Origin: a virus
Taxonomy: Duplodnaviria > Heunggongvirae > Uroviricota > Caudoviricetes
Reading direction: 5' to 3' (one strand)
DNA length: 53,426 nucleotides
IMG/VR virus record: IMGVR_UViG_2541047798_000005
The notes under the pieces were generated by a model that searched no databases, was not told where the DNA came from, and saw only the letters and a program-made list of their open reading frames with translations. Positions 8,991 to 32,260 of the stretch are shown here, one piece after another. The position numbers and the translations under genes are program-made. Position 1 is the stretch's first letter, and each line of letters begins with the position of its first letter.

Positions 8991-9638
8991 ATGAAAACAA
9001 AATGGTATGACTTAGCAAAGCAGCTCATGCGGGCGCAGGGCATGAGCCAGGATTCACTCGCGGATCGTATGGGGATAACTAAAGGCGGCCTGTCACACTG
9101 GCTGAACGGTCGCCGAGAGCCAAATCTTGAAGATATTGCGCGGATTATGCGCGAGCTTGGTCGTCGGCAGTTTACTGTTACACATGATGGCATGGTCATT
9201 GATGATTCTGTTTCTAATACACTTCAGGCCGTGCCGCCGCGTGATTTAGGTAGTTACCCGGTTATTGACTGGAAGGACACAGTAAACAATATGGATGACG
9301 CAAGGCGTTCAGCATTACGACACGTTACGACTAGCGTTATTTGTTCAGATGACAGTTACTGGCTGGTTGCCAAAGGTGAATCAATGAACGCGCCGCAGGG
9401 GTTGAGCATCCCGGCGGGGACGATGATACTTGTGGACCCGCACGCGCCAGCTATTGACGGCAAACTGGTTATAGCCCAGCTTGAGGAAGGGCAGATACCG
9501 ACGTTTAAACAGTTGATTATTGATGGAGGTCAAAGGCTTTTACGTTCGCTCAATCCGCTGTATCCGCCAATCCCTATGAATCCAGAATCAAAAATTATAG
9601 GCGTGGTGGTTGATGCGAAGATCGTAAACCTGCCATAA
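8991..9638 (+). CDS. cI: cI-like repressor (N-terminal HTH, C-terminal S24 LexA-like peptidase domain)
   Basis: 215 aa; HTH (GMSQDSLADRMGITKGGLSHWLNGRR); S24 motifs GESM and K-containing C-terminus; no RBS before ATG, consistent with a leaderless pRM-type transcript. Confidence 0.85.
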   Translation: MKTKWYDLAKQLMRAQGMSQDSLADRMGITKGGLSHWLNGRREPNLEDIARIMRELGRRQFTVTHDGMVIDDSVSNTLQAVPPRDLGSYPVIDWKDTVNNMDDARRSALRHVTTSVICSDDSYWLVAKGESMNAPQGLSIPAGTMILVDPHAPAIDGKLVIAQLEEGQIPTFKQLIIDGGQRLLRSLNPLYPPIPMNPESKIIGVVVDAKIVNLP

Positions 9639-14607: not shown

Positions 14608-14845
14608 AATGCTTAAGAGCTTTTTTAACTGGTTGGGGGCGTGGCTTTTGGCTACGCTTTTTGTTTTCCTGGCGGCCATGACTGTTATCGGTGTTATTAT
14701 GCTGGGGGCTATTTTTATTACGTGGTCGCTTCCTGAATTTAACGACATTGGGAATATTCTTTTTGCAGCCCGCGCTTTATTGGCTGTTAGCGCATTCATT
14801 GGTTTTTGCTGGACTGCCGCGCCGGATTGGACTGACACATGGTGA
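14594..14845 (+). CDS. Small integral membrane protein
   Basis: 83 aa with two predicted TM segments. Confidence 0.4.
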   Translation: MRAFKMLKSFFNWLGAWLLATLFVFLAAMTVIGVIMLGAIFITWSLPEFNDIGNILFAARALLAVSAFIGFCWTAAPDWTDTW

Positions 14846-14849
14846 TCCT

Positions 14850-15083
14850 ATGGCCTTATTCAATATGTCAGAGCCGCAATTTAACGCCGTAAAGACTGCC
14901 GCCCGCGCCGCGCTTTCGGCCTGCAAAGCGGAGGTAGAGAAGAACGGCTACAGCGATAAAGCCACGCGGCTGATATTAGATAAGCATTATCGCAAGGTCG
15001 CCCCGCTAATCAGTATTGAGCGTTTTGTGTGGTTGGTGGGGTATCTGAATAACCGCTGGGGAACAGATCAGGATTATTTCTAA
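14850..15083 (+). CDS. Hypothetical protein
   Basis: 77 aa from ATG at 14850. Confidence 0.35.
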   Translation: MALFNMSEPQFNAVKTAARAALSACKAEVEKNGYSDKATRLILDKHYRKVAPLISIERFVWLVGYLNNRWGTDQDYF

Positions 15084-15092
15084 GGGGGCGTA

Positions 15093-15632
15093 ATGAAAAA
15101 TGATTACGGCGGCAGCCATACGCCGAAAGAAATAAAGGACTTATGGCAAACGCCAAAACCCGTTTTTAGAGGAATGGATCGAGAATTCGAGTTCGTCGCG
15201 GATGTGGCGGCAAACAAGGCAAACGCATTAATACCGCGATATATAACCGAAGAAATGGACACGCTCCATTATCCGTGGGGAGCGGTGGCGATGCCTGGTG
15301 AGTATGTCTGGATGAATCCGCCATATTCTAATCCGGGGCCATTCGTTGATAAAGCGGCGCTTGAACACAGCCGAAATCATATCGGATGCGTAATGTTATT
15401 GCCCGCTGACATTTCTGTTAGCTGGTTTATGAACGGCGTGGAGACGGCAAACGAATGCCGATTAATCACGCGCGGGCGGCTGGCGTTTATCAATGCTGCA
15501 ACAGGGAAACCAGTAAGCGGGAACAATAAGGGGAGCTTGTTCCTGATCTGGCATCCACGATGCAGACATGAATGTATTTTCACGCAGATAACACGTAAAG
15601 AGCTATATGCAAGAGGTGCAGAAAATGAATAA
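15093..15632 (+). CDS. dam: Phage-type DNA N6-adenine methyltransferase (Dam family)
   Basis: 179 aa; catalytic NPPY motif (VWMNPPYSNPGPF); size and layout of phage Dam family. Confidence 0.8.
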   Translation: MKNDYGGSHTPKEIKDLWQTPKPVFRGMDREFEFVADVAANKANALIPRYITEEMDTLHYPWGAVAMPGEYVWMNPPYSNPGPFVDKAALEHSRNHIGCVMLLPADISVSWFMNGVETANECRLITRGRLAFINAATGKPVSGNNKGSLFLIWHPRCRHECIFTQITRKELYARGAENE

Positions 15633-15945
15633 AGCGGCTGAATTACTGAGACTTGCGGCTGAAACTATCGAGGCAAGAGGGGAGCAAAACGGATACGATC
15701 GAAAAGAAGAAAAATCAGCGCCAAAAATAGCGGCTATTTTCAACGCTAAGATGAATGCGAATTTAACCCCACTTGATGTATGGGATCTAATGATTTGCCT
15801 CAAGGAAGCGCGTTTAGGGGCTATTCTCGCTAATGGAACTGATCCGCTCGACACTCTTATAGACCTTATTGCTTATAACGCGCTTAAGGCCGAACAGATA
15901 TTAGCGTATCGGGAGGAAGAGCTAAATGAAGATGGTGGCAATTGA
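15625..15945 (+). CDS. Hypothetical protein
   Basis: 106 aa from ATG at 15625. Confidence 0.4.
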   Translation: MNKAAELLRLAAETIEARGEQNGYDRKEEKSAPKIAAIFNAKMNANLTPLDVWDLMICLKEARLGAILANGTDPLDTLIDLIAYNALKAEQILAYREEELNEDGGN

Positions 15946-16429
15946 CAGGTTATTAGCCTGCGTTTATGTCGCCGTTTTCGTTATCATCAATCTTATTGTT
16001 AACCACTGTGGCCCGTGGGTAATTCCGATCACCACGGTAGCCGCCGTGTGTGTCAATATGATGATTCGTGATTTTCTGTTATATGACGGCGGCCTTAAAT
16101 GGTCGGCTACAACATGCGCCGCCGCTGGCGCAATCACGGTGCTGATAAATTACGACGCCGGAATGGTGGCGATCGCGTCATTCGTCGCGGTTGTTTCCGG
16201 TGCGCTTATTTCTGGCGGCGTTTACCGGGTTTTACCTGGTGATTTCGATTCTAAACGCTGGCCTGCAAATATAGCGTCCGCCATTGGCGATGCGTTAATT
16301 TTCCCAACGCTATCGTTTATGGCATTCATGCCGGAAATATCAGCTATGCAATTCATCTCAAAAATGGCGGCGGTAACGGTGATCACTATCATCATGCGCC
16401 GCTACTTTACGTTCGAGGGTAGGAAATGA
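15926..16429 (+). CDS. Integral membrane protein, function unknown
   Basis: 167 aa, 4-5 predicted TM helices; GGAGG RBS. Confidence 0.5.
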   Translation: MKMVAIDRLLACVYVAVFVIINLIVNHCGPWVIPITTVAAVCVNMMIRDFLLYDGGLKWSATTCAAAGAITVLINYDAGMVAIASFVAVVSGALISGGVYRVLPGDFDSKRWPANIASAIGDALIFPTLSFMAFMPEISAMQFISKMAAVTVITIIMRRYFTFEGRK

Positions 16430-17190
16430 GTGGGCTTAGAAATTGGGTGGTGTGGTCGCTGTACGACGGCAGCGGATACGCCGTTAAAGATTGGGCCGAC
16501 GCTGGTTATAAATGCTATTGCTTCAACTATGATGGCGCTAATCACGGCGATTATGAAGGCGTCAAAATCATTCATCCGAACATTGAGTATATCAACGTAT
16601 GGATTGACAGCCATTTCCTGGTAATGTTCTCCCCTGAATTGTCTGTTTATCCAGATCCTGACATTATCCTGGGCTTTCCTCCGTGCGACGATCTTGCGGT
16701 GTCCGGCGCTCGCTGGTTTGCTGATAAGCGGAAAAAAGATCCTTACTTCCAGCAGAAGGCGGCATACAACGCAAAACTGGTAGAAACGCTTGCTGATATG
16801 TACCACGTCCCGTGGATGGTGGAAAATCCGGTAGGTGCGCTGTCAACGTTATGGCGCAAACCTGATTTTATCTTCAACCCGTGCGCTTACGGTGGCTACC
16901 TGCCTGAAGACGACAAACACCCTGCTTTCCCTGAATACATAGCTGCCCGCGACGCATACACGAAGAAAACTTGTATCTGGTGCGGGAATGGATTTAAGCA
17001 GCCGCTATTCCGGCCTGTACCTATGCCGGATGAATGGGAAGACAGCAAACAGCACGCGAAGTTAGGAGGAAAGTCGAAACGCACTAAGATGATCCGCTCA
17101 CTAACGCCGCGCGGCTTTGCCCGTGCTGTATTCCTGGCTAACGACCGGGCCATCACTCGTACTACGCTTAACCGCATTTTACCGGACTAA
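16426..17190 (+). CDS. DNA C5-cytosine methyltransferase-like protein with non-canonical PCD motif
   Basis: 254 aa; motif I-like SLYDGSG, motif IV-like GFPPCDDLAVSG (PCD instead of PCQ), motif VI-like MVENPVGAL; too short for a full target-recognition domain. Confidence 0.5.
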   Translation: MSGLRNWVVWSLYDGSGYAVKDWADAGYKCYCFNYDGANHGDYEGVKIIHPNIEYINVWIDSHFLVMFSPELSVYPDPDIILGFPPCDDLAVSGARWFADKRKKDPYFQQKAAYNAKLVETLADMYHVPWMVENPVGALSTLWRKPDFIFNPCAYGGYLPEDDKHPAFPEYIAARDAYTKKTCIWCGNGFKQPLFRPVPMPDEWEDSKQHAKLGGKSKRTKMIRSLTPRGFARAVFLANDRAITRTTLNRILPD

Positions 17191-17348
17191 AGTTTACAAA
17201 ATGGCATCATTGCGTGATGCGGATCACATAATGGCGCTTTTGCCTTGTTTGGTGGTATCCATTTTGTATACTTCAAGCAAACAAAATGCTCTTTAAAAAT
17301 CCGGCAGCGCTGAAATGCGTAGAAATCACCTGAAAAGGAGAGAGCATT

Positions 17349-30003: not shown

Positions 30004-31374
30004 ATGCCATCCAATTTAGAATTGGCGGTTAATGCTGCCTTGTCACAACGCCAGGCGGCCTTTGCCCGCTATGCAGCCGCTAACCCATTCTCAATGGGTA
30101 TTGATGCAAAACGTGATGCTGCGTGGAGTGAATACGGATTCAAAGAAGAAATCACCTATGCCGATTTATACAAACTGTATCGTCGCGGTGGTATCGCTCA
30201 CGGTGCTATTGAGAAGATCATTACTACGTGCTGGCGCACCAGGCCAACGCTGATTGAAGGTACGGAAGACGAGAAAGCGGAAAAGGAAACTTCGTGGGAA
30301 AGAGAAATCAAAAAACGATTCGACAATAGATTCTGGCGCGTAATTGCTGAATGCGATCGCCGCCGCCTCATCGGTCGTTATGCTGGACTGTTAATTCACG
30401 TCAGGGATAACAAGCCGTGGGATCAGCCAGTAACAAAAGGCGTAGGCATTGCCAAATTTACCCCCGTATGGGCTGGTGCTCTTACACCGAAGGACTTCGA
30501 AGAAAACCCGGATAAAGAAAACTATGGCCTGCCTACATGGTGGGAATACAAGGAGCGCATTAACAGTAAGACCATAGCAAGAAAGATACATCCAGATCGC
30601 ATATTTATCTTCGGTGATTATTCTGATGATGCCATCGCTTTCCTTGAACCGTCCTATAACGCATTCGTTTCACTGGAGAAAGTGGAAGGCGGCAGCGGTG
30701 AATCATTCCTGAAAAACGCAGCACGTCAACTGGCTATCTCGTTCGATAAAGAAATTGATTTCCGTTCTCTGGCTGCAACATACGGTTGCGACGTTACAGA
30801 GCTACGCGAAAAATTCAATGAAGCGGCAGAGGATATAAATAAAGGTAATGATGTGATGATGGCATTACAGGGAGCTACCGTTAGCCCGCTGGTTACTGCC
30901 GTAGCAGATCCTTCCGCTACCTATGACGTCAACCTGCAAACCGCAGCCGCTGGTATCGATATTCCAACGCGTATCCTGGTTGGGAATCAGCAGGGCGAAC
31001 GCGCATCAACCGAAGACCTCCGCTACTTCAATAACCGCTGCATGACCCGCCGTGAGGAAATAGGAGGTGAGCTTGAGGAGCTATTCCGCAAGATGGCAGA
31101 TCTCCGCCTTATCAGTATGCCAGTAGACGTATCTGTACTGTGGGACGACCTTAACGCCATGACAAAAGCAGAGCTACTCGACGCGGCATACAAAATGGCA
31201 CAAATCAATCAGGCATGTCTCGCTACTGGTGAGGAAATATTCAGCGGTGACGAGATCCGCGAAGCTGCCGGATACGATGGCCCGGCTAGTGAGGTAGAAC
31301 TGGAAGAGGAAAACGATGATGAATGTGAAGAAGATAATCAGGCGAATACCTCCAGCCGCGATAATGCCATCTAA
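30004..31374 (+). CDS. Portal protein (putative)
   Basis: 456 aa from ATG at 30004 with AGGAG RBS; position after terminase; acidic C-terminus. Confidence 0.6.
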   Translation: MPSNLELAVNAALSQRQAAFARYAAANPFSMGIDAKRDAAWSEYGFKEEITYADLYKLYRRGGIAHGAIEKIITTCWRTRPTLIEGTEDEKAEKETSWEREIKKRFDNRFWRVIAECDRRRLIGRYAGLLIHVRDNKPWDQPVTKGVGIAKFTPVWAGALTPKDFEENPDKENYGLPTWWEYKERINSKTIARKIHPDRIFIFGDYSDDAIAFLEPSYNAFVSLEKVEGGSGESFLKNAARQLAISFDKEIDFRSLAATYGCDVTELREKFNEAAEDINKGNDVMMALQGATVSPLVTAVADPSATYDVNLQTAAAGIDIPTRILVGNQQGERASTEDLRYFNNRCMTRREEIGGELEELFRKMADLRLISMPVDVSVLWDDLNAMTKAELLDAAYKMAQINQACLATGEEIFSGDEIREAAGYDGPASEVELEEENDDECEEDNQANTSSRDNAI

Positions 31375-32260
31375 CACCGAAGACCCGACCATGACAGGGA
31401 AGTTAAGGTCTGGTGCTATTAAGCGTTTCAAATCCTGCCTGAAAAAAGTAGCCGATCCATATATCGCCATATTGGACAGAATCCAATATAGCCTGGCTGT
31501 TAATAAGAAATACACCTTTCAGATTTACATGGATGAATTTCACGACATGCTGGAGGACGCAAGCGACATGATTGATGAGATATTCGAGTTAACAGACCCG
31601 GAAAACTTCTGGTTCTGGCAGAATTACGTGAAGGTGGCCTATCAGCGCGGCACGGCACAGGAATATGCCAACCTCGCTAACCAGTCTGTCACGTACTCAA
31701 GCGCCTACCCTGATGTATCTGCCGTGTTATCAAGCACAACTTACCGCACCCGCCTTGCCCTGGTACGTACCCGTGTATTTGAGGAAATGCGCGGGCTGAC
31801 CGCACAGATCAAAAAGGATATGGCAAGAAGATTAACCGAAGGTATGGCACGCGGTTTAAATCCACTGGAAATAGCGCGCACATTGAATCAGGAGACGCGG
31901 TTACCGCTATACAGGTGCAAACGTATTGCCCGAACTGAAATATGCACAGCGTTACGCACAGCGCGTATGGATGAGGCAGAAGCGGCGACAGAAGAATTTA
32001 ATCTGCGCACTATGCAAATGCACATTTCGGCATTATCACCGACTACCAGGCTATCGCACGCGCAGCGGCACGGTAAAACATACACCATAGATGAGCAGCG
32101 CGAATGGTGGAGTAGATCCCCTAATTCAATTAACTGCAAATGTAGCACGATTACCGTATTAGTTGACGAAGACGGTAACATATTAAACGAACGAATATTA
32201 GATCGGGCGCAAGAAAACTATAAAGTTGCGCACGCTAAATATGGCGAAGATTGGGAGTAA
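31316..32260 (+). CDS. Head morphogenesis protein (Mu F / SPP1 gp7-like, putative); start uncertain (alternatives at 31364 and 31391)
   Basis: 314 aa; position between portal and scaffold/capsid genes; overlaps portal 3' end in another frame. Confidence 0.55.
   Translation: MMNVKKIIRRIPPAAIMPSNTEDPTMTGKLRSGAIKRFKSCLKKVADPYIAILDRIQYSLAVNKKYTFQIYMDEFHDMLEDASDMIDEIFELTDPENFWFWQNYVKVAYQRGTAQEYANLANQSVTYSSAYPDVSAVLSSTTYRTRLALVRTRVFEEMRGLTAQIKKDMARRLTEGMARGLNPLEIARTLNQETRLPLYRCKRIARTEICTALRTARMDEAEAATEEFNLRTMQMHISALSPTTRLSHAQRHGKTYTIDEQREWWSRSPNSINCKCSTITVLVDEDGNILNERILDRAQENYKVAHAKYGEDWE

Follow-up and report, generated by a model that had tools for sequence, protein, structure and literature searches.

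Positions 15093-17190 of a 53,426-nucleotide stretch of viral DNA (IMG/VR record IMGVR_UViG_2541047798_000005; the whole stretch is called the window below) end in a gene for a 254-residue protein that is probably an active S-adenosylmethionine (SAM)-dependent DNA cytosine-5 methyltransferase (C5-MTase), working, by analogy with characterized enzymes, through Cys87 and Glu133 and with a minimal, DNMT3-like recognition region. The window is a mEp021/mEpimmI-type Escherichia coli prophage. A first-pass annotation, made from the DNA letters alone, had offered several readings of this protein, as a minimal or non-canonical cytosine methylase, a different base-modifying enzyme or an inactive relative. 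The minimal cytosine methylase is the best of these readings, because a 61%-identical relative, represented by the tested enzyme of phage K42, raised 5-methylcytosine (5mC) levels in vivo and a quadruple mutant of that enzyme lost the effect. The identities of the genes, their family, fold, conservation, selection and context come from the present analysis and 5mC formation by the K42 homolog from the literature; from these we infer the activity of the 254-residue protein, its target sequence and any protection against restriction.

A tested relative raises 5-methylcytosine

The link to experiment runs through phage KarlJaspers (Bas06), whose protein bas06_0055 is 61% identical to the 254-residue protein over 232 residues (E 2e-102) and is encoded by a gene of exactly 711 bp. 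Phage K42 is a KarlJaspers strain (genomes 95.4% identical), and its escape mutants from retron Ec86 (Eco1) map to a dcm gene of 711 bp (10.1101/2023.08.16.553469). Expression of K42 Dcm was toxic only when retron Ec86 was present, and the enzyme raised 5mC in the multicopy single-stranded DNA (msDNA) of Ec86, as measured by liquid chromatography coupled to mass spectrometry (LC-MS), and triggered the retron; the C82A/E128A/K175A/K176A mutant produced neither the rise in 5mC nor the triggering (10.1101/2023.08.16.553469). These four mutated positions, C82, E128, K175 and K176, correspond to C87, E133, K180 and K181 in the window protein. An AlphaFold2 (AF2) model of K42 Dcm superposed best on DNMT3A, and a Dcm of this type was present in 34 of 35 Ec86-sensitive phages (10.1101/2023.08.16.553469). 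The preprint has since appeared as 'DNA methylation activates retron Ec86 filaments for antiphage defense'.

The K42/KarlJaspers enzyme and the window protein belong to the same family (phrog_757), share their catalytic residues and the asparagine in motif II, and are both compact, at 236 and 254 residues respectively, the window protein having about 18 additional C-terminal residues. They differ in motif IV, which reads PCT in the former and PCD in the latter, and in their setting: the KarlJaspers gene sits alone among replication genes of a virulent Drexlerviridae phage, whereas the window gene belongs to a temperate prophage and lies between the gene for a putative VUT-family membrane protein and the nin region.

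Motifs and residue conservation

The first-pass annotation had recognized C5-MTase motifs I, IV and VI in the 254-residue protein, with Asp replacing the usual Gln after the catalytic Cys and with no obvious target-recognition domain, and each of these observations withstood closer analysis. The three motifs occur in order (coordinates in Table 1) and align with those of DNMT3B and M.HhaI; aligning the motif IV region against C5-MTase families, which had been suggested as a check, matched it to motif IV of DNMT3B and of M.HhaI, and the residue after the cysteine is D88. The spacer between the motif VIII-like segment (YTKKT, residue 178) and the motif IX-like segment (RSLTPRG, residue 224) is 46 residues long, compared with 111 residues in M.HhaI; the target-recognition region is therefore minimal, and a conventional target-recognition domain is lacking. 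The likeness of the motif IX-like segment to the R-x-L-x-P-R-E of M.HhaI was seen by eye only, and hhalign gave no confirmation of it.

To describe the family we counted residue conservation over 113 diverse representatives, in which the motif IV cysteine is kept in 107 (C87, 95%) and E133 and K180 are conserved at 98% and 93%, respectively; K181 is conserved in at least 90% of 56 closer relatives. The residues that stand out across the representatives are L12, D14 and G17 of motif I, the motif IV stretch F84-P-P-C87-T-D-L...G94, K101, E133-N-P135 and W143-R144, followed in the C-terminal part by D176-x-Y-x-K180-x-T182-x-x-W185 and R224-S-x-T-P-x-G-F. The residue following the cysteine is T in 98 representatives, with D occurring in 5 and E and R in 3 each, and PCQ is not characteristic of the family. 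PCD is present in 18 of 18 mEp021-group copies, and from these alignments PCD appears to be a clade-fixed variant of the family PCT at a tolerant position, with no change of chemistry. The suggestion that PCD marks a non-canonical enzyme thus loses its footing, since the family consensus is PCT, D occurs in 5 of the 113 representatives and the active enzyme DNMT3B has PCN at this place.

Pairwise ratios of nonsynonymous to synonymous substitution rates (dN/dS) among the mEp021-group methylase genes have a median of 0.12 (range 0.02-0.19, 146 pairs), and the gene is therefore under clear purifying selection.

Family, fold and canonical relatives

The 254-residue protein matches phrog_757, 'DNA methyltransferase', with E 2e-87 (residues 5-246 against positions 13-225 of the 247-position profile). 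Its homologs form 2373 clusters at 90% identity; at 50% identity there are 2109 representatives with E<=1e-3 (212 of them with E<=1e-30), and most of the best 150 of the 2109 are 210-260 residues long. Among 50,697 phage records, 1516 (about 3%) encode a homolog; they come from phages of Escherichia, Klebsiella, Salmonella, Shigella, Vibrio, Xanthomonas and other hosts, under annotations that vary between 'DNA methyltransferase', 'Dcm-like C5 cytosine methyltransferase' and hypothetical protein.

An AF2 model built with 56 homologs (mean predicted local distance difference test score, pLDDT, 88) contains a seven-strand class I methyltransferase core. Its structural matches are led by DNMT3B (score 13.6) and DNMT3A (12.2), followed by the carboxymethyltransferase CmoX (8yf3; 11.7), the prophage methylase 3g7u (11.6), ZMET2 (10.9), M.HhaI (10.6) and M.HaeIII (9.9); 180-199 residues were aligned in these matches, compared with at most 138 for unrelated methyltransferases. 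The best 40 or more Foldseek matches were all to DNMT3A/B/C, at E about 3e-6. The predicted structure is thus that of a C5-MTase fold. DNMT3A and DNMT3B catalytic domains are the best structural matches of the protein, yet they share only 12-16% identity with it, so that the likeness is one of fold and compactness and not of close kinship, and neither DNMT3-style oligomerization nor CpG specificity is implied here.

At the level of sequence, a search of the Protein Data Bank (PDB) with the 254-residue protein gave chance matches only. A profile search of the PDB gave weak matches to DNMT3B and HaeIII (E 0.27-1.2), usable only as an alignment of motifs I-IV, in which the family PCTDLA lines up with PCNDLS in DNMT3B. 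The hhalign alignment of the family with M.HhaI joined motifs I, IV and VI; the C-terminus was not aligned, the sub-alignment there being meaningless. The canonical C5-MTases (PF00145; M.HhaI, M.HaeIII and E. coli Dcm) share with the window protein the class I fold and, in the same order, motif I, the Pro-Cys of motif IV and the Glu-Asn of motif VI. They differ from it in that PCQ becomes PCD or PCT, ENV becomes ENP and QxRxR becomes YxKKT, and in that their GN of motif X was not identified in the window protein.

Proposed mechanism and alternative readings

By analogy with C5-MTase chemistry, Cys87 would attack C6 of the cytosine while Glu133 protonates N3, after which the methyl group of SAM would pass to C5 and beta-elimination would free the enzyme. 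DNA recognition would proceed via a very short variable region, as in DNMT3A/B, and not via a full bacterial target-recognition domain.

Several observations weigh against an active methyltransferase of this kind. The 254-residue protein has no match in Pfam or NCBIfam, and PF00145 gave none even at E<=1, although 27 of 56 relatives match PF00145 at E<1 (best 1.2e-5). The QxRxR of motif VIII is replaced by YxKKT, and the asparagine of motif X is not conserved across the family (N239 is invariant among close relatives only, and a conserved GN is not seen in the family alignment), so that the pocket for the cofactor is not to be equated with the one in canonical enzymes. Position 34, the ribose-binding acidic residue of motif II, is N here and D in 90% of the family; the KarlJaspers homolog also carries N at this position, and N34 is therefore compatible with activity. 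The mEp021 phages grow on McrBC-positive K-12, and growth on a McrBC-positive host would be awkward for a frequent-cutting 5mC pattern. Lastly, the CCWGG target given for the K42 enzyme was carried over from host Dcm as an assumption and is supported by msDNA mutants only, not mapped (10.1101/2023.08.16.553469). A literature search for a mapped methylation motif of the compact Dcm-like family found nothing beyond the retron study.

We regard it as unlikely that the protein is inactive on DNA or acts on another substrate, be it RNA or tRNA, as for DNMT2, or DNA in single-stranded or hairpin form, and serves as a regulator or decoy. It retains all catalytic residues and every family-conserved residue, and the low dN/dS speaks against the inactive relative proposed in the first-pass annotation; moreover, a relative with the same N34 was active, and the DNMT3A/B enzymes, which score best in the structural comparison, work with a small recognition region.

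Equally doubtful is the proposal that the PCD clade, coupled to an orphan VUT gene, has changed its function, through its cofactor or adduct or through an imported compound, or, more modestly, that the minimal family has an unconventional mode of DNA recognition (near-nonspecific, directed to hairpins or single strands, or dimer-based). Unconventional recognition, if true, would explain how sites are chosen without a normal target-recognition domain.

Least probable among the readings of the protein itself is a C5-MTase fold that installs a cytosine adduct other than methyl, such as the 5-carboxymethylcytosine that CmoX makes from host carboxy-SAM (Cx-SAM), or that uses another cofactor. The 61%-identical family member gave 5mC by LC-MS, and DNMT3A/B match better than CmoX. 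The criteria published for CmoX are Arg for the motif X Asn and a neighbouring phage CmoA or ligase gene (PMC12783734); placing an Arg at the position of CmoX R350 did not succeed, the motif X position not being mappable, and no phage cmoA or ligase gene, beside which CmoX genes typically lie, is annotated in this prophage.

For an active DNA methyltransferase the conventional expectation is an anti-restriction role, which is plausible here and which the first-pass annotation had assigned to these genes. In the BASEL study, restriction resistance of Drexlerviridae showed no simple link with these methylases. The K42 homolog is a liability to its own phage, as it triggers the retron immunity of the host (10.1101/2023.08.16.553469). 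Should the prophage enzyme be active, retron Eco1 would be expected to be incompatible with lysogens or induced cells, a prophage-defence interaction.

As it stands, the finding has little weight: studies of the retron Ec86 trigger have already supplied published functional data on the compact Dcm-like family, hundreds of phage genomes already carry the supposedly non-canonical methylase under a Dcm-like annotation, and the Dam gene is routine. The family is nevertheless very common, in about 3% of sequenced phages, and its target and its recognition of DNA without a normal target-recognition domain are not known to have been mapped.

Prophage setting and layout of the gene block

The flagged stretch is 100% identical to the genome of E. 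coli 2017C-4173W12 over the ~2.1 kb compared and 85-90% identical to phages mEp021, mEp010/013/044/515/554 and MagusPhagus; mEp021 and its relatives make up the Nus-dependent 'mEpimmI' phage group (PMC11893012). In the matching chromosome, an integrase gene beside ogt marks the start of the prophage. The stretch is part of the plus-strand early region and is filled by four tightly overlapping open reading frames (ORFs) on that strand (Table 1). The coordinates given in the first-pass annotation are exact at both ends, from the Dam start codon to the stop codon of the 254-residue ORF. Its gene content held for the Dam, membrane-protein and 254-residue genes, whereas its count of three genes did not, the DUF6378 gene between the Dam and membrane-protein genes having been overlooked.

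Table 1. Features of the four-gene block (window coordinates; aa, residues; nt, nucleotides)
Feature	Position	Strand	Remarks
Gene for predicted Dam	15093-15632	+	179 aa; ATG at 15093
NPPY catalytic motif of predicted Dam, residues 75-78	15315-15326	+	read from the translation
Gene for DUF6378 protein	15625-15945	+	106 aa from the RefSeq start; alternative ATG at 15607; overlaps the end of Dam by 8 nt
Gene for putative short VUT/YhhQ (COG1738)-family membrane protein	15926-16429	+	167 aa; overlaps the DUF6378 gene by 20 nt
Gene for probable compact Dcm-like DNA cytosine-5 methyltransferase	16426-17190	+	254 aa; ATGA overlap with the VUT stop; TAA ends at 17190
Motif I, Y13-D-G-S-G17, predicted SAM-binding loop	16462-16476	+	aligned with F-D-G of DNMT3B and F-A-G-L-G-G of M.HhaI
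Motif IV, P85-P86-C87-D88, predicted catalytic Cys	16678-16689	+	F84 precedes; family consensus PPCT
Motif VI, E133-N134-P135, ENV equivalent	16822-16830	+	E in 111/113 representatives; aligned with ENV of M.HhaI
K180-K181, at the place of the motif VIII arginines, predicted substrate-binding	16963-16968	+	K180 in 105/113 representatives
Motif IX-like segment, R224-S-L-T-P-R-G230	17095-17115	+	conservation R224 92%, P228 92%, G230 93%
Hairpin GCATCA-ttgcg-TGATGC	17204-17220		14 nt past the methylase stop codon; also detected by a sequence scan

The overlapping start and stop codons in the block suggest translational coupling, and the four genes would represent a stretch of the early-right operon of a mEp021-type (mEpimmI) E. 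coli prophage, encoding two orphan DNA methyltransferases and two accessory genes. The hairpin downstream of the methylase gene marks the end of the block and may be part of a nutR2/terminator region or a boxB-like element: phage mEp021 has an annotated terminator 14 nt past the homologous methylase gene, and nutR2, the second nut site, has been placed downstream of the methylase gene (PMC11893012). Directly upstream of Dam, the gene at 14691-15083 of the window (L001 3758-3991) is the counterpart of mEp021 'ipe' (inducer of pleiotropic effects), and it may have relevance to the expression of the operon.

Dam and DUF6378 genes

The product of the first gene can be assigned from its sequence matches as an ordinary phage Dam-type N6-adenine methyltransferase, as the first-pass annotation had it on the strength of the NPPY motif. 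It matches PF05869 (E 1.9e-51; 174.5 bits, cut-off 28.1), the equivalog TIGR01712 (140.9 bits against 97.05) and phrog_111 (E 5.8e-64), and RefSeq names it 'phage N-6-adenine-methyltransferase'. With full-length matches above the curated cut-offs of PF05869 and TIGR01712 and with the NPPY motif in place, nothing notable sets it apart from the phage Dam family.

The second gene encodes a protein that matches PF19905 (E 3.4e-09; 37.3 bits, cut-off 27.1) and phrog_474 (E 2.1e-17), and for which no PDB relative was found by sequence. The PHROG label 'phosphofructokinase' is not credible for this protein and looks spurious. The DUF6378 gene follows Dam in the window and in L088, a more distant mEp021-like contig, and homologs in L044 and L046 lie ~1.2 kb downstream of Dam, which makes an association between Dam and DUF6378 possible.

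A short VUT/YhhQ-family, transporter-like gene without DpdA

Sequence comparisons place the membrane protein, which has six predicted helices, as a short homolog in the VUT/YhhQ (COG1738) family. It and the queuosine-precursor transporter of E. coli, YhhQ, both match phrog_4899 over nearly the full length of the profile (E 2.7e-46 and 2.4e-37, respectively); the window protein is shorter than YhhQ (167 compared with 221 residues). Vut_1 is its top Pfam match at a sub-threshold 12.3 bits (cut-off 27.2) and was likewise the top, below-threshold match of all three homologs tried, the best of which reached 20.8 bits (E 5e-4). A direct hhalign comparison with YhhQ gave 35% identity over 71 columns at E of only 0.1, and the best Foldseek match in BFVD was a 'Putative vitamin uptake transporter', which is weak by itself since the AF2 model has a pLDDT of only 70.5. 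By tblastn the protein hits short phage genes of about 155-160 residues, several of them annotated 'VUT family protein', at 28-36% identity (E 1e-10 to 1e-22). Close homologs of the membrane protein are confined to the mEp021-type lineage (12 clusters, the most distant 54% identical).

Outside this lineage, the VUT homolog directly adjoins a DpdA-type (DNA transglycosylase) homolog of the 'queuine tRNA-ribosyltransferase' kind in all 7 other phages examined (PEAT2, Opt-719, LHE71, Phc, RCIP0319, AB3P2 and ECO111 5-P; loci L090-L096), which span Peatvirus, three Drexlerviridae lineages, Obolenskvirus and two unclassified phages. The window gene belongs to the same short length class as the VUT genes of these VUT-DpdA 7-deazaguanine pairs but has no DpdA next to it. 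In the window no DpdA was detected by tblastn or with a hidden Markov model of the seven DpdA proteins run against 630 six-frame ORFs (best E 1.2), and PHROG scans of ten larger unannotated early ORFs of the prophage found no DpdA/TGT. In the mEp021 lineage the Dcm-like gene takes up the slot downstream of VUT. The VUT gene could be left over, or have been transplanted, from a VUT-DpdA (7-deazaguanine) pair, of which the DpdA member is missing in the window. Of all features of the block, a VUT gene lacking its DpdA partner is the most curious, and its separation from an otherwise constant DpdA offers a clean natural case for the role of phage transporters alone.

We note that Tunavirus LHE71 has a compact-methylase homolog ~2 kb away from its VUT-DpdA pair (L092 175-854, minus strand), split into two reading frames and recovered as two tblastn pieces; this split homolog is either a frameshifted pseudogene or the result of a sequencing error.

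Independent neighbours in a shared region

The first-pass annotation had treated the genes of the block as one DNA-modification module, a reading that the distribution of the methylase gene weakens. The order of the four genes is kept in the mEp021 group and in the more distant L088, whose VUT and methylase proteins are 54% and 65% identical to those of the window, respectively. This conservation of order says little, however, because mEp021-type phages are syntenic throughout. Outside the mEp021 lineage the methylase gene stands alone among replication genes: Dam is nearby in only 4 of ~60 loci, no VUT homolog was found beside the methylase in >60 loci, and clustering of the ORFs within 3.5 kb at 64 non-mEp021 loci yielded no recurrent partner gene beyond lineage-specific replication genes. 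In the natural deletion variant L010 (IMGVR_UViG_3300045988_049781), most of Dam, the whole of DUF6378 and half of VUT are missing, a fragment of Dam being fused to the C-terminal half of VUT (L010 4657-5001, protein P0279), whereas the methylase is intact and 95% identical. The DUF6378 and VUT genes would appear not to be needed by the methylase. Because the methylase stands alone elsewhere and L010 retains it, we conclude that the four genes are co-expressed neighbours in a region collecting DNA-modification genes, not a demonstrated functional unit.

A stronger form of the module proposal, in which the VUT protein imports a precursor that the PCD-clade enzyme, together with DUF6378, uses or depends on, we consider very improbable. 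The start and stop overlaps that run across all four genes would suit it, as would the shared order in L088, the constant pairing of VUT homologs with the DNA-modification enzyme DpdA in other phages, and the fixation of PCD only in the clade with a VUT neighbour, but the conserved order is explained by whole-genome synteny in one phage lineage, the family outside that lineage, including the tested K42/KarlJaspers enzyme, manages without a VUT neighbour, L010 has an intact methylase beside a truncated VUT and no DUF6378, and no chemistry connects 7-deazapurine import with a C5-MTase.

Other observations in the phage group

In L088 a Lar-type restriction-alleviation protein (PF14354) is encoded directly after the Q antiterminator (9188-9415), a further anti-restriction function in the phage group. 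Elsewhere in the window, at about 30825-32195 (L004 35733-37103), a gene encodes a 456-residue protein that RefSeq names 'anti-CBASS protein Acb1 family protein'. With the putative large terminase on one side and the minor head protein on the other, this gene has the position of a portal-protein gene, and the name 'Acb1' may be a mis-annotation or reflect a fusion.

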